Source: Actinomycetota bacterium
GTDB lineage: Bacteria; Actinomycetota; Acidimicrobiia; IMCC26256; BP-133
DNA: 24,000 nt
Assembly (NCBI GenBank): GCA_040756995.1
Contig: JBFLYK010000030.1
Span: 19,481-43,480, forward strand
Direction of reading: 5' to 3'
Translations under genes and position numbers: made by a program
Part shown: positions 4,385 through 17,924 of the stretch, in pieces
Position numbering within the stretch: position 1 is the stretch's first letter
How the letters are laid out: each line of letters starts with the position of its first letter
The notes under the pieces: model-generated
The model's database searches: none
What the model was told of the DNA's origin: nothing
What the model saw: the letters and a program-made list of their open reading frames with translations, nothing else

Positions 4385-4834
4385 ATGGCGGATGTCGCTC
4401 AACACCACCACTGGCACGAACTCCCGCTCCGTCGGCGCGTCCTGCGGTTCGTCCTCGTGTCGATCCTGCTCGTCACTGGCGTCATGCTGCTCCAGAGCGT
4501 CGTGATGTACCTGACGATGCCGAAGGTCACGAAGGCCACCCACCACGCCCGCGCGGCCTGCGCCTCCCTCGGGACGTGGCTCGACGGCGGCGGGCCCACC
4601 GGAACGCCCGAGGCGGCTCCGAGCCTGACGGAGGCCACGGAGAGCGCCCGGTCGGCGGCCGCGATGGCTCCTGAGCGCTGGTCGGCACTCCTCGAGGACC
4701 TGCAGTCGGCGGCCGGGCCGGACACTCCGGTGAACGGGCCGGGACCGGTCCTCACCCCGCGCGGTCGCGCCATCGCGAGCGCCATGGCGACCTGCGACTC
4801 CGTCCTCGGCAAGCGGGTAGCCCGGGCGTCCTGA
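4385..4834 (+). CDS. Hypothetical membrane-anchored protein with a His-rich N-terminus
   Basis: ATG 4385 is preceded by a strong SD, GAGGAGGAGGA (4369-4379). The N-terminus is MADVAQHHHWHE, followed by one TM helix (VLRFVLVSILLVTGVMLLQSVVMYL) and an Ala-rich, probably helical, extracytoplasmic domain with 2-3 Cys. I recognise no family. Its stop lies 12 nt before the radical SAM gene. Confidence 0.55.
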   Translation: MADVAQHHHWHELPLRRRVLRFVLVSILLVTGVMLLQSVVMYLTMPKVTKATHHARAACASLGTWLDGGGPTGTPEAAPSLTEATESARSAAAMAPERWSALLEDLQSAAGPDTPVNGPGPVLTPRGRAIASAMATCDSVLGKRVARAS

Positions 4835-4846
4835 CGGTCAGCGACG

Positions 4847-6322
4847 TTGACGACCCCGGTTCCGCTCCGCCGCAAAGTCGACCGCGACGGCGTCTTCCTC
4901 GAGTACACCAAGAGCATCTGCCCGGAGTGCCGGACGGTGGTCGACGGCCAGGTCGTCGTCCGGGACAACAAGGTATTCCTTCGCAAGCGCTGTCCCGCCC
5001 ATGGCGGCTTCGAAGCCCTCCTGTATTCCGACGCTCACCTCTACTTCCACTCCTTGCGGTTCAACAAGCCTGGAACGATCCCCCTCGAAACCCAGACCGA
5101 GCTTGTCGACGGGTGCCCACTGGACTGCGGTCTGTGTCCCGACCACCAGCAGCACGCCTGCCTCGGGATCATCGAGGTGAACACCGGCTGCAACCTCGAC
5201 TGTCCCGTCTGCTTCGCCGAATCGGGGCAGCGGCCCGACGGCTTCTCCCTGACTCTGGAGCAGGTGGAGTCGGCTCTCGACGCCTTCGTTCGGGCCGAAG
5301 GTGACCCCGAGGTGGTCATGTTCTCGGGGGGCGAGCCCACCATCCATCCCCAGATCCTCGACTTCGTGCGCCTCGCCAACGACAAGGGGATCGGGCTCGT
5401 CACCCTGAACACCAACGGGATCCGCCTCGCCCACGACGAACGGTTCGTCGCGGCCCTGGCCGGCATCGAGCCGCGACCCCGGATCTACCTGCAATTCGAC
5501 GGACTCAGCGAAGCGACGCACCGGACGATGAGGGGACGCGACTTGCGGGCCGTCAAGCAACGGGCCCTCGACCACTGCGCTGAAGCTGGATTGACCGTCA
5601 TCCTGGTGCCGGCCGTGGAGCGGGGCGTCAACGAGACCGAGCTCGGCGAGATCGTCCGGTACGGCATGGCTCACCCCGCGGTCAAAGGCGTCGCCTTCCA
5701 GCCTGTGACCCACACCGGCCGGCACATCGACTTCGATCCCACCGACCGGGTCACCAACGCCGATGTGATCCACGCCCTCGCGGACCAGCTCCCCGACTGG
5801 TTCCAGGTGTCGGATTTCGTGCCCGTTCCCTGCTGCTTCCCCACCTGCCGGTCGATCACCTACGCCGTCGTCGAAGGTGAAACCGTCATCCCCATCCCCC
5901 GGCTCCTCAACGTGGAGGACCACCTCGACTACGTCACGAATCGCGTGATGCCCGACGGTTCGGTCCGGGCGGCGCTGGAGAAGCTGTGGAGCGCCTCGGC
6001 CTTCGCCGGCAGCCCCGGCACCGACGTCCACCTCGATCAGCTCGGCTGCCTGAACTGCGGTGTGGAGACTGCGTCCGTCTTCGACTCCCTGGCAGAGAAG
6101 ATCTTCATGATCGTGATCCAGGATTTCGCCGACCCCTACACCCTCAACGTCAAGCAACTCATGAAGTGCTGCGTGGAGGAGTTACTCCCGGACGGCCGCA
6201 TCATCCCCTTCTGCGCCTACAACTCGGTGGGGTACCGGGAGCAGGTTCGAGACCTCCTCTCGGGAAGCGGTAGTAGCGCCCTCCCGGGATCTGCCACGAA
6301 CATCGGAAGGAGGCTGGGCTGA
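4847..6322 (+). CDS. Radical SAM enzyme with an N-terminal Cys4 zinc-ribbon-like segment
   Basis: 491-aa ORF with the canonical CxxxCxxC cluster motif (GCNLDCPVCFA) and a GGEP SAM-binding motif (FSGGEPTIHP). The N-terminus carries CPEC...x19...CPAHG. C-terminal Cys motifs are present (VPCCFPTC, KCCVEE, IIPFCAYN). TTG at 4847 is the only available start because the frame opens at 4835. The overall architecture recalls the MJ0619/Tes (GDGT-MAS) type of radical SAM protein, from memory only. Confidence 0.88.
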   Translation: MTTPVPLRRKVDRDGVFLEYTKSICPECRTVVDGQVVVRDNKVFLRKRCPAHGGFEALLYSDAHLYFHSLRFNKPGTIPLETQTELVDGCPLDCGLCPDHQQHACLGIIEVNTGCNLDCPVCFAESGQRPDGFSLTLEQVESALDAFVRAEGDPEVVMFSGGEPTIHPQILDFVRLANDKGIGLVTLNTNGIRLAHDERFVAALAGIEPRPRIYLQFDGLSEATHRTMRGRDLRAVKQRALDHCAEAGLTVILVPAVERGVNETELGEIVRYGMAHPAVKGVAFQPVTHTGRHIDFDPTDRVTNADVIHALADQLPDWFQVSDFVPVPCCFPTCRSITYAVVEGETVIPIPRLLNVEDHLDYVTNRVMPDGSVRAALEKLWSASAFAGSPGTDVHLDQLGCLNCGVETASVFDSLAEKIFMIVIQDFADPYTLNVKQLMKCCVEELLPDGRIIPFCAYNSVGYREQVRDLLSGSGSSALPGSATNIGRRLG

Positions 6323-7122
6323 ACGCCCCGGGAGCATCCCTCTCCGTCGATCCGACCGTCCTCAAGAACTGCTGCGCCGCGATCTATGAGAGCGACCTCC
6401 TCGCCCTCGTGCTCGGGGCGAGCTATCACCCGGGCGGATTTGAGATGACCCGGCGTCTGGCCCGGGTGCTGCGGCTGCGGCGCGGCGAACGCGTCCTCGA
6501 CGTGGCCTGCGGCCGGGGCGGAAGCGCCTTGCTCCTCGCCGACGAGTTCGCCGCCTCGGTGGACGGGGTCGATCTGGGCCGGGCATCAGTGGAGCACGCC
6601 CGGGCCGAGGCGATCCGGCGGGACCTCGACGGTCTCACTCGCTTCCACGTCGGAGACGCCGAGCGTCTCCCTTTCCCCGATGCCACTTTCGACGTCGTGA
6701 TCTGCGAGTGCTCCTTGTGCACGTTCCCCGACAAAGATCGGGCGGCGGCCGAATTCGCGCGGGTCCTCCGGCCCGGCGGGCGCCTCGGCCTCACCGACGT
6801 CACCCTCGACCCTGCCCGGCTCGACCCAGAGCTGGCCACACTGGCCGGTTCCATCGCCTGCCTGGCCGGCGCCCGACCGGCTGCGGAATACGAAGCGCTG
6901 CTGGCCACGGCCGGGCTGGAGACCACCGTCTCGGAAGCCCACGACTACGCCCTGGCCCACATGGTGGATCAGATCGACGCTCGCCTCCGGGCGCTGGGCG
7001 TCCTTTGGACTACCAACGGCCCGTTCGACACCGAGGCCCTTCTGGGCCACACCGCCCGGGCCGCGGCGGCCGTGGCCGACGGCGTCGCCGGCTACTGCCT
7101 CCTCGTCGCCCGGCGTTCCTGA
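6319..7122 (+). CDS. Class I SAM-dependent methyltransferase (ArsM/UbiE-like)
   Basis: Motif I is VLDVACGRGGSALLLA, with an acidic post-I residue (VDGVDL) and motif FDVVICECSLCTF. The track starts the ORF at GTG 6409, but the frame is open from 6277 and encodes a conserved-looking KNCCAAIYESDLLALVLGASYHPGG segment upstream. That stretch has no ATG, GTG or TTG. CTG 6319 lies 5 nt after a near-perfect SD, GGAAGGAGG (6305-6313), and overlaps the radical SAM stop (CTGA). The CDS itself is confident; the start is uncertain. Confidence 0.8.
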   Translation: MNAPGASLSVDPTVLKNCCAAIYESDLLALVLGASYHPGGFEMTRRLARVLRLRRGERVLDVACGRGGSALLLADEFAASVDGVDLGRASVEHARAEAIRRDLDGLTRFHVGDAERLPFPDATFDVVICECSLCTFPDKDRAAAEFARVLRPGGRLGLTDVTLDPARLDPELATLAGSIACLAGARPAAEYEALLATAGLETTVSEAHDYALAHMVDQIDARLRALGVLWTTNGPFDTEALLGHTARAAAAVADGVAGYCLLVARRS

Positions 7123-7144: not shown

Positions 7145-7176
7145 GGGGGGCCGGCCGCTTCAGCGGCCGGCCCCCC
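7145..7176. terminator. Bidirectional terminator hairpin between the convergent methyltransferase and pmoB-like genes
   Basis: Perfect 14-bp GC-rich stem GGGGGGCCGGCCGC (7145-7158) with loop TTCA and GCGGCCGGCCCCCC (7163-7176). It lies between the stop codons at 7122 (+) and 7213 (-). Confidence 0.7.
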
Positions 7177-7212
7177 GTGACCGAAGGCCTGTCAGCGCCC
7201 GTGGTCGCGTTG

Positions 7213-8412
7213 TCAGCGAGCCCGGGTGAGCTCACCCCACATCTCGACGCCTTCCCGGGCGCCCGTGGGATCCTCGAAGATGAGGAGGCCCGACAGCGAC
7301 GACTGCACCTCGTGGAGGGAGATGAGGCCGTGGTGACCCCAGACGGAGTCCGCCATGACGAGCGTCAGCTCCCTCGTCTCACCGGGGTTGATCGGAGCGT
7401 CGTCGGGAACGACGAGCGAGTACTCCTGCCCGCTGCCGGGAACCCCGAACGTGACCGTCGAGGTGGTGAACTCCCGGATCGACGCCGGCTGCTGGCCGTT
7501 GTTGGTCACCTTCAGCTTCCAGGTCACCTTCTCCTCGGTGGGTGAGTACCGGATGAGGTCGGTGTTCTCCACCGCCAGCGTCTTCGGCAGGTCCAGCGCC
7601 GGCGGGTTGTGGCGCCGGATCTGCTGGGGGACGGTCTCGGGATATGCGTTCTTGGCCCACAGCATCCCGCTGCCGAGGATGACCGCGATCCCGACGGCCG
7701 TGTACACGCCGAACCGGCGCTCCCGCGGGCCGACCAGCTCCTCCTCGACGTTCTCACCCGTGGCCAGCAGCTTGGCCCGGTAGAGCAGCGGCCTCGGGAC
7801 GAGCCAGTAAACGAGCCAGACCACCGCCGGCAGGAGGGCGATAAGGTGCCAGCTGAGCACCGTCGAGCGCCCGTACGACTCGAGGTTCACCACCTTCCCG
7901 TTGGCGAGCTCGACCTCGTTCCGGTAGGTGGGGCCGCCTTCGACCCGCACCCACTGCCCGGGCCCGATGATCGGGCCGACCGTCTTGAACTGAAGCATGG
8001 GGTGGAGGTGCCAGCGCCCCTCCTTGCGGCCGACGACCGTGAGCTTGAAGTCGTAGGTCTTGCCCCGCTCCATCTTCATGCGTCCCGGCACGAACTCGCC
8101 TCCGACCCGGCGGTCGGTCACGACGAAGACAGGCCCGGGGGCGTTGACGTTGAGGTACTCCTCGGTGTTCTCGGGCTTGGCGATCTTGCCGGGCCAGTTA
8201 GTCAGCAGGGTCATCCGGCCCGTCATGGTGACGGACTCACCCCGCTGGATCTTGTTGGTGGACCACTTCACGTCCGACCAGGCGACCGCCCCGGTCTTGA
8301 TGAAGGCTTCCTGGGCGTTCTCGCCGTGGGCCGAGGCCGGCCCGGCCAGGGCCGTCACCGTCCCGGCGAGGGCCGTCATCAGGAGCAGCAAGAACTGAAA
8401 CACTCGCCTCAT
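7213..8412 (-). CDS. pmoB: Copper membrane monooxygenase subunit B (PmoB/AmoB family)
   Basis: The 654-aa track ORF is trimmed to ATG 8412, which overlaps the pmoA stop (ATGA). The signal peptide MRRVFQFLLLLMTALAGTVTALAGPASA is followed by HGENAQEAF, matching the canonical N-terminal His of mature PmoB. The HxH motif GRWHLHPM is present. Two central TM helices are flanked by two cupredoxin-sized soluble domains. Total length is 399 aa. Confidence 0.9.
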   Translation of the reverse strand: MRRVFQFLLLLMTALAGTVTALAGPASAHGENAQEAFIKTGAVAWSDVKWSTNKIQRGESVTMTGRMTLLTNWPGKIAKPENTEEYLNVNAPGPVFVVTDRRVGGEFVPGRMKMERGKTYDFKLTVVGRKEGRWHLHPMLQFKTVGPIIGPGQWVRVEGGPTYRNEVELANGKVVNLESYGRSTVLSWHLIALLPAVVWLVYWLVPRPLLYRAKLLATGENVEEELVGPRERRFGVYTAVGIAVILGSGMLWAKNAYPETVPQQIRRHNPPALDLPKTLAVENTDLIRYSPTEEKVTWKLKVTNNGQQPASIREFTTSTVTFGVPGSGQEYSLVVPDDAPINPGETRELTLVMADSVWGHHGLISLHEVQSSLSGLLIFEDPTGAREGVEMWGELTRAR

Positions 8413-9236
8413 GAGTTCCCTCCCGTTCCAGCGCCGACGAGCATGACCGGCTCGCCCACGGCTTCGGGCTGGCGCACCGCGGGTGCCGGACGCATGAACT
8501 GCGTCGCCGGCTTCACGGCCAGGTACTTCCCGATGAAGATCCCGAACCAGTAGAACGGGAGGGCCAGGAAGCCCGAGGCGAAGGCGATGACGTAGTCGAT
8601 CTGTTCGAGGAATGCCCGCAGGCTTCCCTGCTCGATGATCCGGAGGTATTCCGGCGTCGAGGTCCGGATGTACATGAAGCCCTGCATGTCGGCCAGCGAC
8701 AGCACGGTCCCGTTGTACTCGACGGGCTGGAGGAACGGGGCAAGCATTATCCAGTTCTGCGGGATGAACATCAACCCGAAGGCGAAACAGGCCAGGACCG
8801 ACGTGATCCCGTACCTCCCCCTGGTCCACATCAGGATGATGTCCATGACGACTCCGCCCATGACCATGGTCGCCGGCCACACAAAATTGAACGGGTAGTG
8901 GTCGATGACACCCCAGTTGAACCAGCGGTTGAGCAGCTGGGCCAGCACCAGCAGCACCGTACCGAGTGTCGCCCCGATCGGTATCCGTAATTGTGACCAG
9001 CCGATATAGTGCAGAGCACCCGGCACGATGGCGCTCAGCGCCGGCGTCAGCGTCGCCCACCACTGACGGTCTTTCCAGTCGGTCCAGAAGTCCCAGTCGC
9101 CCACCGTCAGCATGTTGCTCACGTGATAGGCGGCGGGAACGATGAAGATGACCCCGACAATCAGGAGCAGATCCCACTTCCTGCTGAACGTGGCTCGCCC
9201 GTACTTGTGGGGAACTAGCTCGGCCGCTTCAGCCAT
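8409..9236 (-). CDS. pmoA: Copper membrane monooxygenase subunit A (PmoA/AmoA family)
   Basis: 275 aa with near-identical blocks to the canonical PmoA sequence as I recall it: GDWDFWTDWKDRQWW, YPFNFVWPA, VEYNG, RTSTPEYLRIIEQGSLR. It is multi-pass hydrophobic. The SD GGAGGG lies 6 nt upstream of ATG 9236. A C-terminal extension of about 30 aa is present relative to methanotroph PmoA. Confidence 0.92.
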   Translation of the reverse strand: MAEAAELVPHKYGRATFSRKWDLLLIVGVIFIVPAAYHVSNMLTVGDWDFWTDWKDRQWWATLTPALSAIVPGALHYIGWSQLRIPIGATLGTVLLVLAQLLNRWFNWGVIDHYPFNFVWPATMVMGGVVMDIILMWTRGRYGITSVLACFAFGLMFIPQNWIMLAPFLQPVEYNGTVLSLADMQGFMYIRTSTPEYLRIIEQGSLRAFLEQIDYVIAFASGFLALPFYWFGIFIGKYLAVKPATQFMRPAPAVRQPEAVGEPVMLVGAGTGGNS

Positions 9237-9336
9237 CAGCTTTCCCTCCGTCTGGTAATCGGTCTGCCATTCCCCGCTCGGCGGCCGCGAAGGGTCCCTC
9301 TCCGGGGTCGTGCATGGTTGGTTGTCGATGGGTGGT

Positions 9337-9382
9337 CATCGCCCGGCGGCGAATCCGTCCGGTGTGCCGCCACCGGGCGATG
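9337..9382 (-). promoter_or_regulatory. Intercistronic stem-loop between pmoC-like and pmoA-like genes
   Basis: CATCGCCCGG (9337-9346) pairs perfectly with CCGGGCGATG (9373-9382). The stem extends by CGGC (9347-9350) pairing with GCCG (9366-9369) across a 2-nt bulge. It lies inside the 199-nt pmoC-pmoA spacer. Confidence 0.5.
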
Positions 9383-9435
9383 CCGACCCGAAGCCCCCGG
9401 AGGGGCCTACTGGGTGTGCTTCTCCTGCTACAGCG

Positions 9436-10323
9436 TTACTGCGGAGCCCACCACCGCCGCCAGTGGACGGGGTAGGACGCGGGGACCGGCTCGGCCGTCC
9501 CTTCCTTCTCCGCCTGGGCGGCTTCCTTGTCGGCCAACTCCCACATCCGGGGACCCGTGGCGAACCACACGGCGAACGTCCCGGCCAGGAGGTAGGCGAA
9601 CAGGTTGAAGCCCCAGTGCAGGGGGGCGGAGAAGATCTCCTCGGTGAAGAAGAAGCTGTGGAACCACTCGTTCATCGCCACCCAGATGAGCAGGAAGAAC
9701 GAGCCGCTCAGCACGAGCCCCCAGGAGATCGGGAAGCCCTTGTCCCGGAAGAGGTGAGGCAGCCGGTCCCGGGCGTAGAGATACGACCCCACAGCCAGCA
9801 TGATGAAGAGCGGGAAGATCCCGAAGAACAGGTTGATATGGGACGGTGTGAACGCCGTGTCCCGCACCGCCACCTGGTGCCAGGTGGCGTCCTGCTCCGC
9901 CTTGAAGCTCCCGCCGACGAAGATCGCCATCAGGTAGATGCCGAGCAACGCCCACAGTCTCCAGATGTGCCCCATCTCGTGCTGGGCCGTGACCGCACCG
10001 AACTCGGCCCGCTGGGCCTTGCAGTGCTTGCAGCCCTTGGCGATCCACGAGTACCAGATCAGACCACCTAACGGGATGATGGTGAGGTTCGCCCACAGCA
10101 TCGTCATCCAGTAGCGGCCGAATTCAGGCGTCGTGGCGTCGAGGCCCTTGCTGAACGCGAAGAGCTTGTCCCAGGTCATCCAGAAGACGGTGATCCCGAG
10201 GACCATGCCCAAGCCGATGAGCAGAGGGGCCCAGGGACCGCCCTTTCGAGCCGAGACAGCGATGTCGTCAACGAGGACGACCTCCTCGACACCGAGCCTC
10301 TGGTCCTGCGCCGTTGTTGCCAT
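9436..10323 (-). CDS. pmoC: Copper membrane monooxygenase subunit C (PmoC/AmoC family)
   Basis: 295 aa with hallmark blocks AEQDATWHQVAVRDTAFTPSHI (Asp-x3-His-x12-His) and MNEWFHSFFFTEEIFSAPLHWGF (Asn-x3-His-x13-His). It is multi-pass hydrophobic. The SD GGGAG lies about 6 nt upstream of ATG 10323. Confidence 0.92.
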   Translation of the reverse strand: MATTAQDQRLGVEEVVLVDDIAVSARKGGPWAPLLIGLGMVLGITVFWMTWDKLFAFSKGLDATTPEFGRYWMTMLWANLTIIPLGGLIWYSWIAKGCKHCKAQRAEFGAVTAQHEMGHIWRLWALLGIYLMAIFVGGSFKAEQDATWHQVAVRDTAFTPSHINLFFGIFPLFIMLAVGSYLYARDRLPHLFRDKGFPISWGLVLSGSFFLLIWVAMNEWFHSFFFTEEIFSAPLHWGFNLFAYLLAGTFAVWFATGPRMWELADKEAAQAEKEGTAEPVPASYPVHWRRWWAPQ

Positions 10324-10648
10324 GTGTTCTCCCGCACCCCCTTTCAGGGTTGAGTATCCGGTTCGTTACCTACGGTGAAGGCCCTCGGGACGTCCTCCGC
10401 ACTCGGTTCCGAGACCCGATGGGTTCCGACCCATCGTGACGATCCTCACCGCAGGGATGCGGGTGTCATACCTCCATCTGGAGAAATGTTTGCGCCGATC
10501 GGCCCGCCCGAATTCCGATGTTCCCCGCCGCTGCCGGAGCTCGGACGTGCCCGAATCATTGCGAAATCACGGCGCGCCGAAATGCGCCTTCCCCCGGGAG
10601 GGGAGGGCGCAACTCGAGCGAAAGAATCAGCGCTGAGAGGCTGCGGCC
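10324..10648 (-). promoter_or_regulatory. Long non-coding leader/promoter region upstream of the pmoC-like gene
   Basis: 325 nt with no convincing ORF and visibly lower GC than the flanks. It contains the hairpin CGATGGGT-TCCG-ACCCATCG (10417-10436) and the inverted repeat CCTCC-ATCT-GGAG (10471-10483). Long 5' leaders are known for pmoCAB/amoCAB transcripts. I could not call -35/-10 boxes with confidence. Confidence 0.4.
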
Positions 10649-10780
10649 TCAGCGGTCGCGCTTGGCGGGGTTCTTCTTCACGAAGTAGAAGAGCATCGCC
10701 CCGAAGACCAGCGGCGTGAAGAAGGGAAGCAGCATGTACGGACCGCTCCCTCCGTGAGCCACGACCAGTTCGTACGGCAT
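10649..10780 (-). CDS. 43-aa single-helix hydrophobic small protein (not in the ORF track)
   Basis: My own translation is MPYELVVAHGGSGPYMLLPFFTPLVFGAMLFYFVKKNPAKRDR. ATG 10780 is preceded by GAAGGGAGAG with a 5-nt spacer. There is one hydrophobic helix and a basic C-terminal tail. The stop codon is embedded in the hairpin GCTGAGAGGC...GCCTCAGC (10632-10653). It is on the same strand as pmoCAB and upstream of it. Confidence 0.5.
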   Translation of the reverse strand: MPYELVVAHGGSGPYMLLPFFTPLVFGAMLFYFVKKNPAKRDR

Positions 10781-11100
10781 GCCCGCTCTCCCTTCTGACG
10801 GTGAATACGACGACCGTCATTAGGAAGGATGCCGGGGAGGCCGTCTACCTCCAGATGGAGGGTTGAACGGAGGTTCACAACTGGGGCGGGCCAGCGACAG
10901 AAACGGACTTCCCGGCTATGATTGGGACTTTCGACGCTGGTTCTTGTTGCGCTAGGCAGCGACGATAGGCTGCCGGCCACCCAGGGGGTGCTCGCGCCGA
11001 TCGCGCGGGCGTTGCACGTTGGGTGGCGGCTGAACGGACGAGGAGTCGGCTCGTGTGGTTGGTCGCCCGGGGGGGCCTTGAAGTTCCAGGGAAGTGGCGA
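10781..11100. promoter_or_regulatory. Divergent control region between the small ORF/CuMMO side and the sensor kinase/SDIMO side
   Basis: 320-nt gap between divergent start codons. It contains the inverted repeat TGACGGT-N10-ACCGTCA (10796-10819) and the palindrome CCTCC-AGAT-GGAGG (10848-10861). Promoters are inferred from the gene arrangement only. Confidence 0.4.
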
Positions 11101-12252
11101 ATGAAGAAAGTCGGGGCGGAGGACGTCGCCCTCGAGGCGACTGGCGAGCTCGAACGGCTGGAGCAGGACTATGCCGCCGTCATCGCCCTCCTCGACCGTG
11201 GTGCCGCTTTCCGCCACGCCACCGCCCAGGCCCGCCAATCGCTCGGCGTGGACGTCGCCATGGCCGGTGAGGTCGACGACGACGTCGACACCCTGGTCCT
11301 CCGCACTTTCAGCGGCGTCCGCACCAACTCCCTGCAGGAGCTCGTTGTCCCTCCCGGAACCGGCCTCGGCGGCAAGGTGGCGGTGCTGCGTCACCCCATC
11401 TGGGTTCCGGACTACTGCGCGTCGCCGGCGATCACCCACGACTTCGACCTCTACGTCCGCAACGAGCAGCTCCAGGGCATGCTGGCCGTCCCGATTCTGC
11501 GAGGCCACGAGTTCCACGGCGTGCTCTACGTGGGGAACCGGCAGCGCTGCGCGTTCGGAGACCGGGCCAGCGACACGCTGCTCCAGATCGCCCGACAGGC
11601 CGGCCTGGCTATCGACATCGCCGGCCGCTCCCAGGAGATGGCCGACATCGCCGTCGAGGAGGAGCGGAGCCGGATCGCCCTGTCCCTCCATGACACCGTC
11701 GGGGCCATGTTGTTCGGGATCAGCGCCGCGGCCAAGGACCTCACCACCAACGTCCAGGCAGACCATCCCCTGCGTCGGCGCGTCGAGTTCATCGAGCAGC
11801 AGGCCGTCCGGGCGGCTGTCGCCCTCCGGGCGGCCCTGCGGGCTCTGGACGAGACCCCGAGGGAGGTGGCGCTGGCCGTGGCCCTCAAGCGGGACTGCAG
11901 CGCCTTCCAGACCCGAACCGGAATCCGCACCAAGGTCGTCACCCTCGGCGACGTCGGTGCCATCGACGCCGGTCGCAAGTCGGCGCTCCTGTCGGCCATG
12001 CGGGAAGCGCTCCTCAACGTCGAAAAGCACGCCAACGCCAAGTCGGTGGTGGTGAGCCTGGTCCGCACCGACGACGGCATCGCGGTGGTGGTGGCCGACG
12101 ACGGAGTGGGGATCCCCGCCGAGCATCAGCGCACCGCCGGCCTCGGGCTGAAGGCGACCGCCGAGCGCATGGCCCAGGTGGGCGGGCGGATGATGATCGC
12201 CCCTGGCGACGAAGCCGGCGGCACCGTGATGAGGGCCTGGGCGCCGGTGTGA
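11101..12252 (+). CDS. Cytoplasmic sensor histidine kinase, GAF domain + HisKA_3 + HATPase_c (NarX/DevS-type transmitter)
   Basis: No TM segment is present. The N-terminal region of about 170 aa is GAF-like (LGVDVAMAGEV...VPILRGHEFHGVLYVGNR). The H-box is EEERSRIALSLHDTVG (HisKA_3 type). The N-box is REALLNVEKHA and the G-box is DDGVGIP...GLGL. I chose ATG 11101 (GGAAG about 6 nt upstream); GTG 11023 is the alternative in the track. Confidence 0.85.
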   Translation: MKKVGAEDVALEATGELERLEQDYAAVIALLDRGAAFRHATAQARQSLGVDVAMAGEVDDDVDTLVLRTFSGVRTNSLQELVVPPGTGLGGKVAVLRHPIWVPDYCASPAITHDFDLYVRNEQLQGMLAVPILRGHEFHGVLYVGNRQRCAFGDRASDTLLQIARQAGLAIDIAGRSQEMADIAVEEERSRIALSLHDTVGAMLFGISAAAKDLTTNVQADHPLRRRVEFIEQQAVRAAVALRAALRALDETPREVALAVALKRDCSAFQTRTGIRTKVVTLGDVGAIDAGRKSALLSAMREALLNVEKHANAKSVVVSLVRTDDGIAVVVADDGVGIPAEHQRTAGLGLKATAERMAQVGGRMMIAPGDEAGGTVMRAWAPV

Positions 12253-12890
12253 GGACGACCCAGGCGTCCGTACGGGTCCTCGTCGTCGACGACCACCCCG
12301 TGGTCCGCCAGGGGGTGGCCATGCTCCTGCGGTCGGACCCGCAGATCAGCCTCATCGGCGAGGCCGCCTCCGCCCGGGACGCCATCGACACCACCCGGCG
12401 TCTGCGCCCTGACGTGATCCTCCTCGATCTCCGGCTGCCCGACATGCTGGCCTGCGAGGCCATTCCTCAGCTCCGGGGAGCCAATCCCACCTCGAAGATC
12501 GTGATCTTCACCGCCTACGCCGGCCACCGGGCGCTCAGCGCCGCGATCGAGGCGGGGGCCGACTGCTGCCTGCGTAAGGACGCCGCCGACGTCGACCTGG
12601 CGGTGACCATCAAACGCGTCGCCCGGGGTGAACGGTTCGTCGATCCCCGGCTCCGCCACGACAGCGCACCCGGCCGGATTCCCCGCAGCGCGGCGGGGCC
12701 GTCGCTCACCCAGCGGGAATACGAAGTCCTCCGGCGGGTGGCGATGGGCGAGACCAACCCGGAGATCGCCGAAGCGCTCGGCCTCTCCCGCAACACCGTG
12801 AAGACCTACCTGCAGACGGCTCTCCAGAAGCTCGGCGTCCGCAACCGCGTGGAGGCGATCGCCAAAGCCAACGAGGTCGGTCTCCTGTAA
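12249..12890 (+). CDS. Response regulator, NarL/LuxR family (REC + HTH_LuxR)
   Basis: The REC domain shows VRVLVVDDHPVVRQG with the phospho-acceptor context DVILLDLRLPD. The C-terminal LuxR HTH reads LTQREYEVLRRVAMGETNPEIAEALGLSRNTVKTYLQTALQKLGV. The GTG start overlaps the kinase stop (GTGA at 12249-12252). Confidence 0.9.
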   Translation: MRTTQASVRVLVVDDHPVVRQGVAMLLRSDPQISLIGEAASARDAIDTTRRLRPDVILLDLRLPDMLACEAIPQLRGANPTSKIVIFTAYAGHRALSAAIEAGADCCLRKDAADVDLAVTIKRVARGERFVDPRLRHDSAPGRIPRSAAGPSLTQREYEVLRRVAMGETNPEIAEALGLSRNTVKTYLQTALQKLGVRNRVEAIAKANEVGLL

Positions 12891-12897
12891 AGGAGGG

Positions 12898-14442
12898 ATG
12901 ATGGCGCGGTCGCTCGCCGCCCGCCACGACAAGGTCAAGGCCTTTTCCTGGGATCCGACCTACGTCGTTCGCAAACCGCGCTACCCGACGCGCTACACCA
13001 TCCCTCCCCGGACCCGGGATCCGTTCCGGCACCTCCTGCGCGAGTACCTGGCCATGGAGGAGGAGAAGGACAACCGGCAGTACGGCGCCCTCGAGGACGT
13101 CATCACCCGGAGCCGCAGTCCGGAGCAGACCCAGCCGCGGTGGATGGAGGTCCTTAAGCCGCTGCTCGGGATCGTGACCTTCGGCGAGTACGCCGCCATG
13201 AAGTGCATGACGATCATCACCGATGCGGTCGATAACCCGGAGCTCCGCCAGGGATACCTGGCCCAGATGCTCGACGAGGTCCGCCACGTCAACCAGGAAT
13301 CCTACCTCCTCCGCTACCTCGCCAAGCACGCCCCCGACCCGGCCGGCTTCAACTCGGCGCTCCAGGCGCGGGCCTACGACCCGATCTGCCGGGCCGGGAG
13401 AGCGGCCTTCGAGACGTTCCTCAACGACGACCCGATCGCCTGCGCCCTCAACCTCCAGGTGGTGGCGGAGGCGGCCTATACCAACTCGATCTTCGTGGCC
13501 GTCACCGAGATCGCGGCCGCCAACGGCGACCCGGCCACGCCATCGGTCTTCCTCAGCGTGCAGTCCGACGAGGCCCGGCACATGTCGAACGGCTACGCCA
13601 CCTTGGCCGCGGTGCTCTCCGAACCCGACAACATCCCCCTTCTCCAGGAGGACTTCGACGCCGCCTTCTGGCGCCAGCACGTCTTCCTCGACAACTTCCT
13701 CGGCGCGGTCTACGACTACTTCCCCAAGGTCCGGCTCCGGCCCTACCGGGAGTACTGGGAGCAGTGGGTGTGGAACGACTGGATCGGGAGCTACGTCGAG
13801 CGGTTGAGCCCCTTCGGGCTGCAGGTGCCGCGCTGGGCGGAGCAAGCCCGCCGGAACGTCATGTGGGGCGGGCACACGCTGGCCATGCTGTCCCACGCGC
13901 TGTGGCCGATCCACCACTGGCGCAGCGACCCGATGCTCGACGAGGACTTCGAGTACCTCGAAGACCACTATCCCGGGTGGGAAGCCCTCTACGGCGGCTT
14001 CTGGCGGACGTACCGGGAGATGACCGATCCCCGCGACCGGGCGCTCCCCTACCAATTGCTCGACGAGTTGCCGTCGTTCTGCCGGGTGTGCCAGATGCCG
14101 GCGATCCTGCCCCGGCCCGACTGGGCCGACACCCGCATCTACCGCGACCTCGACAGGGTCAAGCACGTCTTCTGTTCGGAAGCCTGTGAACTCATCTTCC
14201 GGCGGGCCCCCCACCGGTACCGGGGGAGGACCTGGTGGGAGATCTACGACGGCATGGACCTCGCCGAGTACATCGAACGGGCCGGTCTGGTCCGGGCCGA
14301 CGGGAGGACCCTGGTGGCTCAGCCGCACCTCGACACCGACGAGTCCCGGCTGTGGACGCTCGACGACATCCGCGCCGTCGGGAAGGAGATCCGGGATCCG
14401 TTGCGAGACGTGCGACTCGACGACCTCCCGGTGATCGCGTGA
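12898..14442 (+). CDS. Soluble di-iron monooxygenase hydroxylase alpha (large) subunit
   Basis: 514 aa with both carboxylate-bridged di-iron motifs: GEYAA...DEVRH and AEAAYTN...SDEARH. Other typical SDIMO alpha blocks are present (MEEEKDNRQYGA, AAANGD, YPGW, GRTLVAQPHLD...LWTLDDIR). A C-terminal CRVC...CSEAC segment follows. It starts 7 nt after the regulator stop with the SD AGGAGGG; either ATG 12898 or ATG 12901 could be the start. Confidence 0.93.
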   Translation: MMARSLAARHDKVKAFSWDPTYVVRKPRYPTRYTIPPRTRDPFRHLLREYLAMEEEKDNRQYGALEDVITRSRSPEQTQPRWMEVLKPLLGIVTFGEYAAMKCMTIITDAVDNPELRQGYLAQMLDEVRHVNQESYLLRYLAKHAPDPAGFNSALQARAYDPICRAGRAAFETFLNDDPIACALNLQVVAEAAYTNSIFVAVTEIAAANGDPATPSVFLSVQSDEARHMSNGYATLAAVLSEPDNIPLLQEDFDAAFWRQHVFLDNFLGAVYDYFPKVRLRPYREYWEQWVWNDWIGSYVERLSPFGLQVPRWAEQARRNVMWGGHTLAMLSHALWPIHHWRSDPMLDEDFEYLEDHYPGWEALYGGFWRTYREMTDPRDRALPYQLLDELPSFCRVCQMPAILPRPDWADTRIYRDLDRVKHVFCSEACELIFRRAPHRYRGRTWWEIYDGMDLAEYIERAGLVRADGRTLVAQPHLDTDESRLWTLDDIRAVGKEIRDPLRDVRLDDLPVIA

Positions 14443-14534
14443 GCGTGCCGGGCGGGGCACCCCGAGAGACGCCAACCCCGAGCCGGATCGGTGCCTCCCG
14501 CCTGGTGTCGTCGCTCGCGACCACGAGGGAGACC

Positions 14535-15638
14535 ATGGTTGAGCGGCTCCTCGGCCGGCGACGGGCCGAGGCGCCCGACCCGATCGATCCGCCGGCAGAC
14601 TTCTATTCGCCCCGTGAACTCACCTACGTGACGCCCGTCGGCCGGCGGCTGTCGGACTACGAGGCCTCGATCTGTCAGAACCAGCCGGATTTCGGCCAGT
14701 ACGACTCGGGCGGCTGGTACCTCCTCTCCCCGGAAGGGAGGGCCCTCTTCGACGAGGGGACCACCGCCCTGCGCCACCCCAACTGGTTCGACTACCGTGA
14801 CCCCTCTACCCTGTGGCAGCGCACCTATGTCCGCCAGCAGGCCGAGCAGGAGCGGGCCATCGCCGCCGCCCTGGAGACGGCCCGGATGGACGACGCCTTC
14901 GCCGACGTGGACAGTGCCTGGGCCTGCGACATCCTGGCCCGCTACTACGAAGCCTGGGGTTGCGCCGAGTGGGGGCTGTTCCTGGCCTACACCTACCCGG
15001 TACGCGAGGCGCTGTCCGACACCCTCACCATGGCCTTCGTGTTCGCCGCCGTTGACCATCTGCGCCATCAGCAGGCCATCGGGCTCTACTCGCTCGACCT
15101 GGAGGACGAGGTGCTGGGCTACCGGTCCGGCCTGGGGCCCGATACCTGGATCAGCGACGCGGCCCTCCAGCCGAGCCGGCGGGTCGTCGAGGGCCTCATG
15201 GCCACCGACGACTGGGGGGAGATGGTGATCGTGACCGCCCTGCTGTTCGAGCCGCTCCTCTCGGCCTTCGTCACCAGCCAGTTCCTCCGCCGGCATGCGG
15301 CCCTCAACGGTGACATCCTCACCCCCGCGATCATCCTGACGGCCGAGCGGGACCGGGCCCGGAACCGGGCGGCCACTGTCGCCCTCGTGGAATTGCTCCT
15401 TGGCCCGAGCGACCGGAAGGGCCGTCCCGTTCCGGCCGGCCACAACCGCGACGTCCTCCAGGACTGGATCGACCATTGGGCCCCCCTCGTCCTCGAGGCC
15501 GTCGACGCCTTCGTCCCCGTCTTCGATCTCCCGCCGGCGCGGGGTCCATCGGCCGCCGCCGCCCGAGAGCGCGTCGTGGCCGGCTGCCACGACCTCCTGT
15601 GCGACGCCGGTCTCGAACTGCCGGGGGCCGCCTCATGA
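14535..15638 (+). CDS. Soluble di-iron monooxygenase hydroxylase beta (small) subunit
   Basis: The track ORF 14235-15638 is trimmed to ATG 14535, preceded by GAGGGAG. The product is 367 aa, a size typical for a beta subunit, with the characteristic NWFDYRDPSTLWQRTYVRQQAEQE block. It lacks the alpha-type ExxH di-iron motifs, as expected. An alternative start is GTG 14439, which overlaps the alpha stop (GTGA). Confidence 0.8.
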   Translation: MVERLLGRRRAEAPDPIDPPADFYSPRELTYVTPVGRRLSDYEASICQNQPDFGQYDSGGWYLLSPEGRALFDEGTTALRHPNWFDYRDPSTLWQRTYVRQQAEQERAIAAALETARMDDAFADVDSAWACDILARYYEAWGCAEWGLFLAYTYPVREALSDTLTMAFVFAAVDHLRHQQAIGLYSLDLEDEVLGYRSGLGPDTWISDAALQPSRRVVEGLMATDDWGEMVIVTALLFEPLLSAFVTSQFLRRHAALNGDILTPAIILTAERDRARNRAATVALVELLLGPSDRKGRPVPAGHNRDVLQDWIDHWAPLVLEAVDAFVPVFDLPPARGPSAAAARERVVAGCHDLLCDAGLELPGAAS

Positions 15639-15967
15639 CCAGCGACGGAGGGCGATGGGGCGACGCCGGTCGCCAGACGGTCGGTGTGTGCCTGATGAAG
15701 ACGGAAGAAGGCGAGGCGACGGTCGCCTACCTTTCGGAACGGGCTCCACAGCTGCGGATCCAGGACCGGGGGGCCTTCTACCTGGTGGAGGGAGAAGGCG
15801 AGATCCGTATCGGCATGCCGGAGGTCAGCGAGTACCTCGGCCGCGACTTGCCGGTGCACACGTTCCTGGTCACGATGAGCAGCTACTACGGCCGCGTCCA
15901 CCTCGATGAGGATGCCTTCGTCGTCTCGGCGGCCATGGATCAGCTCGAGAATCGTGACGCCTCCTGA
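15635..15967 (+). CDS. Monooxygenase coupling/effector protein (MmoB/DmpM family)
   Basis: The track ORF 15476-15967 is trimmed to ATG 15635, which overlaps the beta stop (ATGA). The 110-aa product aligns by eye with DmpM/MmoB-type regulators over VGVCLMKTEEGEATVAYL...IRI...VSEYLGRDL...FLV...GRV...DAFVV. Confidence 0.78.
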   Translation: MTSDGGRWGDAGRQTVGVCLMKTEEGEATVAYLSERAPQLRIQDRGAFYLVEGEGEIRIGMPEVSEYLGRDLPVHTFLVTMSSYYGRVHLDEDAFVVSAAMDQLENRDAS

Positions 15968-15979
15968 GAAGGCCGGAAC

Positions 15980-17035
15980 ATGCCCCGAAGACTGAACCGG
16001 GAGGAGCCCGAACCGGCCGGCCTCGACACGGCGCACCGGATCACGATGCTGCCCCAACGCGAGGAGTTCCCGGCCCACCCCGACGAAGACCTGCTCACCG
16101 CCGCGCTGCGTAGCGGTCGCCAGGTGATGTACGGCTGCCGGCACGGCAACTGCGGGACGTGCCTCCATCGGCTCGTCGACGGCGAGGTCGTCGAGGCCGT
16201 CACATCCCCCTACGTGCTCTCCGCGGACGCCCGGGACCAGGGAGCGATCCTGCTCTGTTCCACCTACGCCCGCAGCGACGTGACGATCGAGAGTTCCGAG
16301 GCGGACGTCCTCGCCGAGGACATCGAGGTCATCCCGCCGGAGCAACGGATGGCAGAGGTGCGGTCCACCTCCGGCGTCACACCGTCGGTCGTGGAACTCC
16401 GGGTCGCGCTCGACAGGCCGCTGTCGTTCCGGGCCGGCCAGTACGTCGAGGTCTGGGTGCCCGGCAGTGACTGCCGCCGCTCGTTGTCCATCGCCAGTGC
16501 CCCGGCGGAAGCCGACGAGCTGAGCTTCGTCGTGCGGATGCGACCGGGAGGCCGCTTCGCCTCGGCGCTCGCCGGAATCCGGCCCGGCGACACCCTGCGG
16601 CTCCAGGGGCCGTTCGGCCATTTCCACTTCCGCGATTCGGGCCGGCCGGCGGTGATGGCGGCGCTCGGAACCGGGATCGCCCCGATCCTGTCGATCATCC
16701 TCGACGTCGTGAAGGCGGCGGGCCCTCCGCTCGCGCTGTACTACGGCGGAGCCGCCGACGAGCGGCCCTACGTGGAAGAACTCGAACGTCTGGCGGCGGC
16801 CACCCCCCACTTCTCCCTCCACTTTGCACCGCCGCCCCGCAACGGTTCGAACGAGATCGGAATGCTGACCCAGCTCCTCGCCGGCCGGCTCCGGGACGGG
16901 TCATCGCACGATGCCTACGTCGCCGGGCTGCCGCCGATGTGTGACGCCCTCTGCGCTTTGCTGGCGGCCAAGGGCACGCCGGAACGCCACGTCCACGTCG
17001 AGCGCTTCTATCCCGCCGAACCGACCCGGCGATGA
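15980..17035 (+). CDS. NADH:ferredoxin oxidoreductase component (plant-type 2Fe-2S ferredoxin + FNR-like FAD/NAD domains)
   Basis: 351 aa. The N-terminal 2Fe-2S motif is CRHGNCGTCLHRL...LLC. The FAD-binding motif is RRSLSIAS and the NAD-binding motif is GTGIAPILSI. This is the typical MmoC/DmpP/TmoF-type reductase layout. GAGAAGG lies about 7 nt upstream of ATG 15980. Confidence 0.9.
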   Translation: MPRRLNREEPEPAGLDTAHRITMLPQREEFPAHPDEDLLTAALRSGRQVMYGCRHGNCGTCLHRLVDGEVVEAVTSPYVLSADARDQGAILLCSTYARSDVTIESSEADVLAEDIEVIPPEQRMAEVRSTSGVTPSVVELRVALDRPLSFRAGQYVEVWVPGSDCRRSLSIASAPAEADELSFVVRMRPGGRFASALAGIRPGDTLRLQGPFGHFHFRDSGRPAVMAALGTGIAPILSIILDVVKAAGPPLALYYGGAADERPYVEELERLAAATPHFSLHFAPPPRNGSNEIGMLTQLLAGRLRDGSSHDAYVAGLPPMCDALCALLAAKGTPERHVHVERFYPAEPTRR

Positions 17036-17036
17036 G

Positions 17037-17069
17037 ACGGGTCCCGGTCGCCGAGCGACCGGGACCCGT
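17037..17069. terminator. Bidirectional terminator hairpin between the convergent reductase and coxM-like genes
   Basis: Perfect 15-bp stem ACGGGTCCCGGTCGC (17037-17051) pairing with GCGACCGGGACCCGT (17055-17069), with a 3-nt loop (effectively a slightly larger loop). It is followed by TTCTCGG on the plus strand. It lies in the 64-nt gap between the stops at 17035 (+) and 17100 (-). Confidence 0.65.
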
Positions 17070-17099: not shown

Positions 17100-17924
17100 T
17101 CAGGCCACCCCCGCCTCCTGGAGGGCCCGGCGGACGAGCACCCTGGCCAGGTGACGGCGGTAGGCCGCGTCGGCATTCAGGTCGGTGACCGGGTCGGTAC
17201 CCTCGCCCGCCTGCTCCGCCGCCTCGGCCGCCGAGGCGCCCTGACGGAGAGCCTGCTCCACCAGCCGGGCCCGCAACGGCGTCGGACCCATGTTGACGAG
17301 CGCCACGCCAGTGGTCCCGTTGTGGACGGCGGCCACCCCGACGATGGCCCAGTCGAGCGCCCGACGGTTGAACTTCTGATACGACCAGCCGGCGCCCGCC
17401 ATCTTCGGTACCCGCACCTCGACGAGCATCTCGTCGGGCGCGAGCGCCGTCTCGAGGAATCCCGAGAAGAAGTCCACGGCCGGGATGTCCCTGGCGCCGC
17501 CCGGACCCTTGGCCACCAACGTGGCGCCGAGGGCCACCATCACAGCCGGAAGGTCGGCGGCCGGGTCGCCGTGGGCCAGCGATCCTCCCAGCGTGCCGCG
17601 ATGGCGGACCTGGGGGTCGCCGACCAGACCGGCGACGTGGGCCAGAAGCGGGACCTCGGCCCGGAGGAGCTCGCTCGTCTCGAGATCATGGTGCCGGGTG
17701 AGCGCCCCGATGGCCACCTGGTCGCCGTCCTCCCAGATGTAGGACTGTTCCCGCACCCCGGCGACGTCGATCAACACCGTCGGTGACGCCAGCCGGAACT
17801 TCATGAGCGGGATCAGCGAGTGGCCGCCGGCCAGGAGCTTGGCGTCATCGCCGTGCTCCGAGAGCAGGGCGATCGCCTCCTCCGTCGAGGAGGCGCGAAC
17901 GTAGTCGAACGGTGCCGGGATCAT
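17100..17924 (-). CDS. coxM: Molybdenum hydroxylase FAD-binding medium subunit (CoxM/XdhB-like)
   Basis: The track ORF is trimmed to ATG 17924, which overlaps the coxL stop (ATGA). The N-terminus [21 protein letters not shown]...KLLAGGHSLIPLMKFR is the classic FAD_binding_5 pattern. The product is 274 aa. Confidence 0.88.
   Translation of the reverse strand: MIPAPFDYVRASSTEEAIALLSEHGDDAKLLAGGHSLIPLMKFRLASPTVLIDVAGVREQSYIWEDGDQVAIGALTRHHDLETSELLRAEVPLLAHVAGLVGDPQVRHRGTLGGSLAHGDPAADLPAVMVALGATLVAKGPGGARDIPAVDFFSGFLETALAPDEMLVEVRVPKMAGAGWSYQKFNRRALDWAIVGVAAVHNGTTGVALVNMGPTPLRARLVEQALRQGASAAEAAEQAGEGTDPVTDLNADAAYRRHLARVLVRRALQEAGVA

Follow-up and report, generated by a model that had tools for sequence, protein, structure and literature searches.

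How does a bacterium that carries a copper-dependent and a di-iron monooxygenase side by side control the two enzymes, and does it choose between them or make both at once? The question is raised by a stretch of 24,000 nucleotides (nt) from an Actinomycetota bacterium (GenBank assembly GCA_040756995.1, contig JBFLYK010000030.1, positions 19,481 to 43,480 of the forward strand), here called the window. Positions 7145 to 17069 of it hold the genes of a membrane-bound monooxygenase that contains copper (CuMMO) on one strand and, divergently, those of a two-component system and a soluble di-iron monooxygenase (SDIMO) on the other. An original prediction for this locus proposed a hard-wired either/or choice between the enzymes, exerted by a dedicated sensor lying between them. 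The analysis described here points in another direction: on balance, the block is probably the core of an island for short-chain hydrocarbon oxidation, in which the CuMMO and a group-6 SDIMO are co-induced as parts of one two-component regulon.

Gene content of the divergent block

The block consists of the following features, given with coordinates and strand.

7145..7176, no strand: left hairpin with a perfect 15-bp GC stem (7145-7159/7162-7176) at the convergent junction of a methyltransferase gene and pmoB
8412..7213, minus strand: PmoB-like CuMMO subunit, 399 amino acids (aa), with a signal peptide ending in ASA before HGE (PF04744, 5.2e-84)
9236..8409, minus strand: PmoA-like CuMMO subunit, 275 aa (PF02461, 3.8e-72)
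10323..9436, minus strand: PmoC-like CuMMO subunit, 295 aa (PF04896, 9.7e-58)
11101..12252, plus strand: cytoplasmic GAF-HisKA_3-HATPase_c histidine kinase, 383 aa, from its domains; the start is backed by two related contigs
12249..12890, plus strand: NarL/LuxR-type response regulator with REC and GerE domains, 213 aa, from domain matches
12898..14442, plus strand: SDIMO alpha hydroxylase subunit of group-6 type, from family match, identity and di-iron ligands
14439..15638, plus strand: SDIMO beta hydroxylase subunit, 399 aa, from family match
15635..15967, plus strand: MmoB/DmpM-type coupling protein, 110 aa, from family match
15980..17035, plus strand: Fer2-FAD-NAD reductase, 351 aa, from family match
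17037..17069, no strand: right hairpin with a perfect 15-bp GC stem (17037-17051/17055-17069) at the convergent junction with a molybdenum (Mo) hydroxylase operon

The gene identities first proposed for both enzymes stood, as all seven of their proteins gave strong family matches, and the perfect GC hairpins reported at the two convergent junctions are each 15 nt long and 100% complementary. The left hairpin is likely a bidirectional terminator.

Homologues of the C, A and B subunits follow one another in C-A-B order on the minus strand, and Pfam assigns them to the CuMMO superfamily. The start of PmoB is the ATG at 8412, giving a 399-aa protein that matches its relatives; the mechanical open reading frame (ORF) extends to 9177, and the family match begins at its residue 285. 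The metal ligands are intact. Checked in Methylococcus capsulatus Bath numbering (PmoB His33/His137/His139; PmoC Asp156/His160/His173 and Asn227/His231/His245), PmoB keeps the CuB ligands, namely the N-terminal His after ASA and a WHLH motif, when aligned to solved chains of particulate methane monooxygenase (pMMO) and ammonia monooxygenase (AMO). PmoC keeps both of its metal sites (EQDATWHQV...TPSH and NEWFHS...PLHW, with the patterns D-x3-H...H and N...H...H). The NCBIfam equivalog cut-offs for AMO/pMMO were not reached (AmoA_BACT 251 vs 290, AmoB_BACT 306 vs 336, AmoC_BACT 202 vs 319), and the enzyme is, judged by its sequence, a member of the superfamily rather than an AMO or pMMO orthologue.

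Among 5.8 billion proteins, PmoA has one cluster at 95% identity and three at 62-77% (75-77% and 62%), all others lying at 55% or below, while the top match among the 185,579 species genomes of GTDB, a metagenome-assembled genome (MAG) of Alicyclobacillaceae, reaches 49%. The HmoA proteins of Mycobacteriales are 46-47% identical, with 46% for Mycolicibacterium chubuense NBB4. An exact look-up of the PmoA sequence matched no record, and a metagenome scan with PmoC gave only distant matches (34-41% identity). Contigs related to the locus come from forest and farmland soil assemblies, the lineage being represented in the soil data sets JGI 3300056388, SRR23012437, SRR19369641, ERZ1760229 and ERZ1823573, and the enzyme appears to represent a new, deep-branching, metagenome-only clade. 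Its copper-dependent hydroxylation and substrate range are putative, being read from homology.

The alpha subunit of the SDIMO is 66.1% identical to SmoA of the group-6 cluster on plasmid pMYCCH.01 of NBB4, 65.6% to that of M. dioxanotrophicus PH-06 and 64.8% to those of Rhodococcus ZPP and WAY2, as opposed to at most 47% for group-4 EtnC-type, ~42-44% for group-3 and ~37% for group-5 type enzymes; groups were assigned by pairwise identity of alpha subunits. The gene order alpha-beta-coupling-reductase, without a gamma subunit or a Rieske ferredoxin, is the one that defines group-6 SDIMOs (PMC11825192 section 3.6). All six di-iron ligands of MmoX (E114, E144, H147, E209, E243, H246) align to identical residues. 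The enzyme is classed here as a group-6 SDIMO (propane-1-monooxygenase type); group 7 was also considered and ruled out, as gene order and hosts differ.

The regulator gene ends at 12890 and the alpha ATG lies at 12898, confirming the 7 nt between them that had been noted before. The kinase and regulator are 43% and 41% identical, over their full length, to the pair that accompanies the group-6 cluster of NBB4, and a GAF kinase paired with a LuxR-type regulator has been described alongside group-6 smoABCD in Rhodococcus aetherivorans BCP1 and in NBB4. In domain make-up (GAF/HisKA_3/HATPase_c and REC/GerE) the window pair is of the smoABCD cluster type; the phospho-acceptor motifs LHD (kinase) and LLDL (regulator) are present, and the recognition helix NTVKTYLQ is common to the window and NBB4 regulators. 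The kinase has no membrane segment and a single GAF domain, its ATP-binding domain resembles those of DevS, DosT and DesK, and domain scans revealed no known Cu-sensing domain in it.

Relatives of the locus place this pair with the SDIMO. At 93-95% identity the whole layout is retained, including a 43-aa ORF in the gap between the operons, and no fewer than four independent contigs from metagenomes preserve it at protein identities of 79-96%. In more distant relatives, the kinase-regulator-SDIMO unit is divergent from a CoxSLM operon (80% alpha identity) or from an AMP-binding gene (67%), in both cases with no CuMMO alongside, and at 70% no CuMMO is found in the part of the contig seen. Since relatives keep the unit without a CuMMO, the two-component system is part of the SDIMO module, beside which the CuMMO is a lineage-specific neighbour; the sensor is not the dedicated arbiter first proposed but the standard companion of a group-6 SDIMO. 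In a relative with 79% kinase and 93.5% alpha identity, seen in the contigs L092 (743-1925) and L093 (1-1242), there are ~22 nt between kinase stop and alpha start and no regulator gene.

Operator boxes in the shared control region

The gap between the two operons (10324-11100, ~0.78 kb) had been taken for a shared control region holding a 43-codon ORF. Both parts of this description were borne out: the gap contains two conserved operator boxes, and the ORF is a real gene. The features found there are as follows.

10324..10435, minus strand: predicted pmoC 5' leader, ~110 nt, with sequence and hairpins kept in the related contigs L083 and L092
10442..10486, minus strand: predicted pmoC promoter with box 1 (TACCTCCATCTGGAGAAA, centre between 10477 and 10478), a spacer of 21 nt (N21) and the hexamer GAGGAT (10447..10442), from pattern and conservation
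10631..10654, minus strand: hairpin resembling a terminator, downstream of the 43-aa ORF; at the corresponding position L092 carries a clear GC hairpin with a T-run behind it
10649..10780, minus strand: gene of a 43-aa small membrane protein with an AHGG motif (MPYELVVAHGGSGPY-TM-KKNPAKRDR, where TM is a transmembrane helix), with its own promoter and terminator, and homologues
10819..10863, minus strand: predicted small-ORF promoter with box 2 (TACCTCCAGATGGAGGGT, centre between 10854 and 10855), N21 and the hexamer CCTAAT (10824..10819), from pattern and conservation
10894..10922, plus strand: promoter-like site of the kinase-regulator-SDIMO operon, GCGACA-17-TATGAT, with the -10 conserved in L083

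The two boxes are copies of a palindrome (TACCTCCA-NN-TGGAG) at 10469 and 10846, and the pattern TACCTCCANNTGGAG has 8 matches in the window vs 0.28 expected. Box 1 faces pmoC from a distance of 146 nt upstream of its ATG. In L083, whose PmoC is 96% identical, the surrounding DNA has diverged while both boxes are kept with only the central 2 nt changed, and both are also kept in L092 (PmoC 86%, kinase 79%). Between box and hexamer the sequence varies among the relatives and the length is constant.

The same element is found at promoters of group-6 SDIMOs, where the palindrome takes the 7-2-7 form ACCTCCR-NN-YGGAGGT. Upstream of smoA in NBB4, PH-06 and WAY2, a palindrome with the same half-sites (ACCTCCGATCGGAGGT) lies ~90-95 nt before the gene. 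In BCP1, in which smoABCD is induced by C1-C7 alkanes, the smoA start has been mapped by primer extension, and a conserved palindrome over the -35 region was described and said to be common to NBB4. On gene-facing sides the geometry, counted from the palindrome centre, is a half-site of 9 nt, a non-conserved stretch of exactly 21 nt and a hexamer, which is GACGAT at smoA of NBB4, GATGCT in PH-06 and GATGGT in WAY2, with TAGACT at the N21 position of the kinase operon in L092. The hexamer fits NANNNT on 7 of 9 gene-facing sides vs 1 of 15 others. The composite YGGRGGTR-N21-NANNNT has 6 matches in the window vs 0.20 expected, a count that none of 100 shuffles reached. With its centre near -42, the box would lie where class II activators classically bind.

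In L092, the -10 of the kinase/SDIMO operon and that of the small ORF lie at equal distances on either side of a single palindrome, and pmoC has its own copy; from this symmetry, a response of the same sign is predicted for both enzymes. As an observation on the spacing, the window and L083 have ~32 nt (three helical turns) more than L092 between box 2 and the TATGAT of the kinase operon (10864-10916 vs L092 2040-2072).

Mycobacteriales, the contig L086 and the window lineage all have the palindrome together with this kinase/regulator family, which suggests that the local regulator binds the boxes. The box was not present in the hmoC upstream regions of NBB4, PH-06 and WAY2, and no shared motif was found between the hmoC and smoX upstream regions of NBB4 or in the intergenic region of L098, an independent back-to-back locus described below. 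As these hmoC genes lack the box and hmoC and smoX share no motif, the wiring of a CuMMO into the group-6 operator set appears to be lineage-specific.

The predicted pmoC leader could be a post-transcriptional control element. Its region (10324-10452) is ~97% identical between the window and L083, and the hairpins CGATGGG...CCCATCG and CTCGG..CCGAG are kept in L083 and L092 with different loops. RNAalifold on the three sequences gave conserved hairpins and no compensatory change, and an Rfam scan of the whole window returned no match.

A model of co-induction

In the favoured model, the kinase would sense a cytoplasmic signal, by analogy with BCP1 smoABCD an alkane or a metabolite, and phosphorylate the regulator, whose dimer would bind the ACCTCCR-NN-YGGAGGT palindromes centred ~42 bp upstream of the transcription start. 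The regulator would thereby activate pmoCAB, the small-protein gene, a Mo-hydroxylase operon, an ABC1 gene, a ZnuA-like gene and two further units, and, acting from further away, would also feed back on the kinase-regulator-SDIMO operon that encodes it. The group-6 SDIMO would be transcribed together with its cognate kinase and regulator, and the 43-aa gene separately from pmoCAB. On this model, the copper and the iron enzyme would form one regulon and be co-induced, and if metal supply selects between them, it would do so at a stage later than transcription initiation. What the genes encode, that their catalytic residues are intact, and that the boxes are conserved at a fixed spacing are observations; the protein that binds the boxes, the substrate, the signal and whether regulation is positive or negative are inferred. 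For the signal, the analogy with BCP1 favours induction by substrate or metabolite.

Several points weigh against this model. A site overlapping the -35 could mediate repression instead of activation, and the -10 hexamers are weak and were chosen by position. The kinase-regulator-SDIMO operon of the window has no box at N21; the centre of box 2 lies ~-74 from its inferred start. No box-type internal promoter was found within the kinase or regulator genes, nor any other box-type promoter before alpha. Because the box is ~32 nt further upstream and no internal promoter is seen, the SDIMO may differ from the CuMMO in the amplitude of its response, or even in its kind. The assignment of the local regulator to the boxes rests on co-occurrence, and this regulator may be encoded elsewhere in some lineages, since L092 and L093 have no such gene in front of alpha. 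Only three related lineages and the Mycobacteriales smoA promoters supply the conserved footprints. Finally, the 24-kb window has no groEL, NDMA (N,N-dimethyl-4-nitrosoaniline)-type alcohol dehydrogenase or aldehyde dehydrogenase gene, accessories of group-6 clusters which, according to the literature, are only partially conserved among them.

Alternative explanations

The either/or switch of the original prediction, in which the two-component system would read metal, O2 or substrate and express the copper or the iron enzyme reciprocally, is unlikely, though it ranks highest among the alternatives to co-induction. One regulator could indeed repress at one site and activate at another, given a box at ~-42 for pmoC and the small ORF vs ~-74 for the kinase-SDIMO operon; a ZnuA-like gene with the same box links metal supply to the regulon, and reciprocal or metal-dependent use of the NBB4 enzymes has been hypothesised. 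Yet the boxes of pmoC and the small ORF share operator, promoter position and architecture with group-6 smoA promoters, which are alkane-inducible in BCP1, and the single palindrome of L092 serves both operons at equal distance. A soluble kinase with a single GAF, nearest in structure to DevS/DosT and DesK, showed no known module for sensing copper, and its unit with the SDIMO occurs in relatives without a CuMMO beside it. Moreover, none of the genes for MmoR, MmoD, MmoG, CopCD or methanobactin turned up in domain scans of the window ORFs.

The boxes could also belong to a wider circuit, in which an unlinked global regulator, CRP- or other LuxR-type, binds them as part of a broader catabolic stimulon and the local pair controls its own operon only. 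That L092 and L093 retain the boxes though the regulator gene is missing from the locus, that at least seven sites over 24 kb precede functionally diverse genes, and that putative CRP sites have been proposed at BCP1 smoA would all fit such a circuit, which is nevertheless improbable and falls behind the switch: the palindrome keeps company with this kinase/regulator family, the window regulator has the recognition helix of its NBB4 counterpart, and a 7-2-7 inverted repeat is the typical site of NarL-family dimers (NarL/NarP). Least probable of all is mere adjacency, in which a CuMMO cassette landed beside a mobile group-6 module, each would be under its own control, and the boxes would serve only the SDIMO and two-component side or another factor. 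Carriage on plasmids and horizontal transfer are frequent among group-6 clusters and CuMMOs, the kinase-regulator-SDIMO unit has different neighbours in different relatives, and no motif was found to be shared by the NBB4 hmoC and smoX regions. A chance neighbour is, however, hard to reconcile with a box that faces pmoC at N21 and is conserved in L083 and L092, or with a layout kept in at least four independent contigs, and the scanned window ORFs yielded neither a transposase nor an integrase.

Comparison with known systems

The claim that no locus of this layout had been described holds only in part. It is reduced because a CuMMO-SDIMO neighbourhood has already been published for NBB4: the review PMC8784404, citing Coleman 2012 and Martin 2014, places hmoCAB 'immediately upstream' of smoXYB1C1Z, an SDIMO of group 3, and states that Hmo and Smo had already been hypothesised to be a high/low-affinity pair or to be expressed by metal availability; co-regulation has been raised for NBB4 as well. 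In the record of plasmid pMYCCH.01 the two clusters are co-directional and 6.8 kb apart, with genes for an AMP-binding protein, a GAF (AcoR/GAF-type) regulator and sigC between them. The NBB4 locus thus resembles the window in joining a CuMMO and an SDIMO for gaseous hydrocarbons, with an AMP-binding ligase and MoxR/VWA genes nearby. It differs in that its SDIMO is of group 3, with a gamma subunit, and lies co-directionally ~6.8 kb downstream, whereas the window SDIMO is of group 6, divergent, 0.78 kb away and led by a two-component system; moreover, the same operator precedes both sides in the window, while no shared operator was found in NBB4.

A second, independent back-to-back locus is that of L098 (JGI 3300028831, 9087 bp; 138-7472), which pairs a CuMMO with a group-3 SDIMO. 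Its PmoA is 52% identical to that of the window, and its pmoCAB genes are divergent, across 964 bp, from a 422-aa regulator-like gene and an alpha gene 76% identical to NBB4 SmoX.

In PH-06, WAY2 and ZPP, CuMMO and SDIMO share one plasmid at 40-80 kb distance. The pairing is uncommon: in a GTDB scan with PmoA, none of the best 80 of 360 loci, a set without Mycobacteriales loci, has an SDIMO within 10 kb.

The group-6 clusters (smoABCD/prmABCD) of BCP1, NBB4 and PH-06 are like the window in their alpha-beta-coupling-reductase order, their GAF kinase and LuxR-type regulator, and the ACCTCC...GGAGGT palindrome over the -35. In Mycobacteriales, however, the regulator gene is antisense and smoA has an intergenic promoter, while in the window the regulator is co-directional and stops 7 nt short of alpha, which leaves no room for a separate promoter of the smoA kind. 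Unlike these clusters, the window also lacks the chaperonin and dehydrogenase genes after the SDIMO, and its operator has spread to the CuMMO and at least five other units.

The copper switch of methanotrophs likewise concerns one organism with a copper membrane and a di-iron soluble monooxygenase for an overlapping substrate class. Its copper control involves MmoR/sigma-54, MmoG, MmoD and copper-uptake systems, none of which the domain scans found in the window ORFs. The methanotroph loci for the two enzymes are separate. The promoter architecture of the window predicts parallel rather than reciprocal control. In signalling design, the closest parallels are DevS/DosT-DevR (DosR) and NarX/NarQ-NarL, which share a HisKA_3 kinase, a cytoplasmic GAF, a NarL-family regulator and inverted-repeat operators, including -35 overlap. 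The window kinase differs from them in its single GAF without evidence of a haem ligand, and the half-site sequence is different.

A small membrane protein associated with CuMMO operons

The 43-codon ORF in the gap has coding-type G+C (guanine plus cytosine) content by codon position (0.59/0.39/0.86) and a Shine-Dalgarno sequence. Compared with L083, its codon changes are 7 synonymous and 5 conservative, and three lineages have the same residue at 32 of the 43 positions. Further mechanical ORFs reach into the gap, none of them with conservation. The product has the design M-x5-VVAHGG, a single TM helix and a basic tail, and no signal peptide.

The same design is encoded directly after hmoB in NBB4, PH-06, WAY2 and L098 and in several actinobacterial MAGs. 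With an added signal peptide, it is found in 44 Binatia-type loci, where the gene lies between pmoA and pmoB (e.g., L010 at 4545 and L057 at 10785). Members were recognised by a short N-terminus or signal peptide, AHG[GMVI], a TM helix within ~22 residues and a basic tail, on the CuMMO strand and in the operon zone; further examples are listed here.

L081, 14122-14337: AHGG gene
L096, 7101-7397: AHGG gene
L097, 7096-7377: AHGG gene
L098, 7595-7873: AHGG gene

In total, 59 of 90 CuMMO loci examined have a member, at three operon positions. The combination of AHG[GMVI] and TM helix occurs 59 times in operon zones (0.15/kb) vs 3 times elsewhere in the same loci (0.0013/kb), an enrichment of ~120-fold. 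Profile support is modest: in two tests with composition-matched shuffles, the score of the window peptide was reached by 1 of 2000 and by 12 of 5000. Searches of the 43-aa sequence against PDB chains and 1.84 billion representatives retrieved its own lineage only, plus spurious repeats.

In the literature found, the sole entry for the Binatia gene reads 'CAxB, x hypothetical' (Murphy et al. 2021, PMC8262859). The product of this small gene of the Binatota CAxB operons shares the AHGG motif, the single TM helix and the basic tail with the 43-aa ORF. The two differ in that the Binatia gene lies between pmoA and pmoB and encodes a cleavable signal peptide, while the window gene lies upstream of pmoC, with its own promoter and terminator and no signal peptide. 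No name or function for the family was found.

A bolder reading is offered tentatively, as one we hold possible rather than probable. It states that a group-6-derived two-component system has captured a whole island, co-expressing CuMMO, SDIMO, Mo hydroxylase, quinone-related ABC1 kinase and metal importer, so that the Cu and Fe enzymes would both be made once substrate is present, with metal supply deciding which enzyme is active; and that the AHGG protein is an unrecognised fourth component, a subunit or a copper-handling factor, of non-methanotroph CuMMOs from Mycobacteriales to Binatia.

Other boxed units and flanking genes

The G+C content of the window is ~70% throughout. This value, the DUF3040 and DUF4242 genes, an apparently leaderless gene and the nearest relatives of the SDIMO suggest that the host, an uncultured soil bacterium, is probably an actinomycete. 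Outside the central block, domain scans and the operator pattern identified the following features.

34-1572, plus strand: AMP-binding acyl-CoA ligase, 53-55% identical to hmoCAB-adjacent ligases of NBB4 and WAY2
1553-3439, plus strand: MoxR-VWA fusion
3451-3801, plus strand: DUF4242/SCO4226-like gene
within 34..7122, plus strand: DUF3040 gene
4303-4337: half-palindromic operator-like site facing the unit of membrane ORF, radical SAM (S-adenosylmethionine) and methyltransferase genes
4385-4834, plus strand: membrane ORF with a His-rich N-terminus
4847-6322, plus strand: TrsS/Tes-like radical SAM enzyme
6409-7122, plus strand: SAM methyltransferase, convergent on pmoB
17100..20745, minus strand: CoxS/CoxL/CoxM-like Mo-hydroxylase operon (S 20745..20278, L 20281..17921, M ~17924..17100), from domain scans
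20782..20853, no strand: bidirectional box 4 (ACCTCCAAACGGGGGT, centre between 20817 and 20818), with N21-CACGAT toward coxS (ATG 20745) and N21-CAAGAT on the opposite side
~20893-21614, plus strand: DUF3040-like gene, then a cupin gene with a twin-arginine translocation (TAT) signal, faced by box 4, from domain scans
21936..23279, minus strand: ABC1/UbiB-type atypical kinase gene, from a domain scan
23286..23387: box 3a (centre between 23321 and 23322, N21-CATAGT, toward ABC1) and box 3b (centre between 23351 and 23352, N21-CAGCCT, toward the ZnuA-like gene)
23458..24000, plus strand: ZnuA/TroA-family lipoprotein of a metal ATP-binding cassette (ABC) transporter, with a His/Cys-rich loop, continuing beyond the window

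As the operator-N21-hexamer element precedes coxSLM, the DUF3040-like/cupin genes, ABC1, the ZnuA-like gene and the three-gene unit, most of the 24-kb window looks like one regulon. The ABC1 gene is apparently leaderless, its GTG lying 7 nt after the -10.

The Mo hydroxylase is a candidate for an aldehyde-oxidising step, and together with the ligase it fits a route from hydrocarbon via alcohol, aldehyde and acid to acyl-CoA. The window contains no alcohol dehydrogenase gene of any type. In the relative with 80% alpha identity (P0122 contig, JGI 3300078620), a gene for a 777-aa glyoxal-oxidase-like copper radical oxidase follows coxSLM; its product is a possible alcohol- or aldehyde-oxidising partner, absent from the window.

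Ligase, MoxR/VWA and DUF4242 genes recur beside CuMMO operons of Mycobacteriales (L081, L095, L096, L097 and L001 compared), the ligase also adjoins the CuMMO operon of the Alicyclobacillaceae MAG, and a DUF4242 gene recurs near PH-06 hmoCAB, which suggests a conserved CuMMO accessory set. The radical SAM protein scores 340 bits with the selenoprotein-type TrsS model and 319 bits with that of the tetraether lipid synthase Tes, both below cut-off; for this enzyme and the methyltransferase, a modification of membrane lipids or of a cofactor is conceivable. The ~0.3 kb from the cupin gene to the convergent end of ABC1 (21615-21935) has no convincing coding signal, and its mechanical ORFs show atypical codon-position G+C.

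Implications for gaseous-alkane oxidisers

The novelty of the locus lies in a CuMMO of an apparently new clade that would have been recruited into the two-component regulon of a group-6 SDIMO, with a defined operator. To our knowledge, the coordination of copper and iron monooxygenases in gaseous-alkane oxidisers, which often carry both enzymes, is not known outside methanotrophs. The locus supplies a testable wiring diagram in the form of an operator sequence, predicted promoters for at least seven units and a cognate sensor pair within a compact 10-kb unit that could be transferred to Mycolicibacterium smegmatis, and its promoter/regulator set may be usable for short-chain hydrocarbon biosensors. 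Functional expression of actinobacterial-type CuMMOs is a known bottleneck, for which the AHGG small protein may be needed. Finally, the CuMMO clade found here in soil would probably be missed or misassigned by marker-gene surveys that use the known pmoA/amoA groups.

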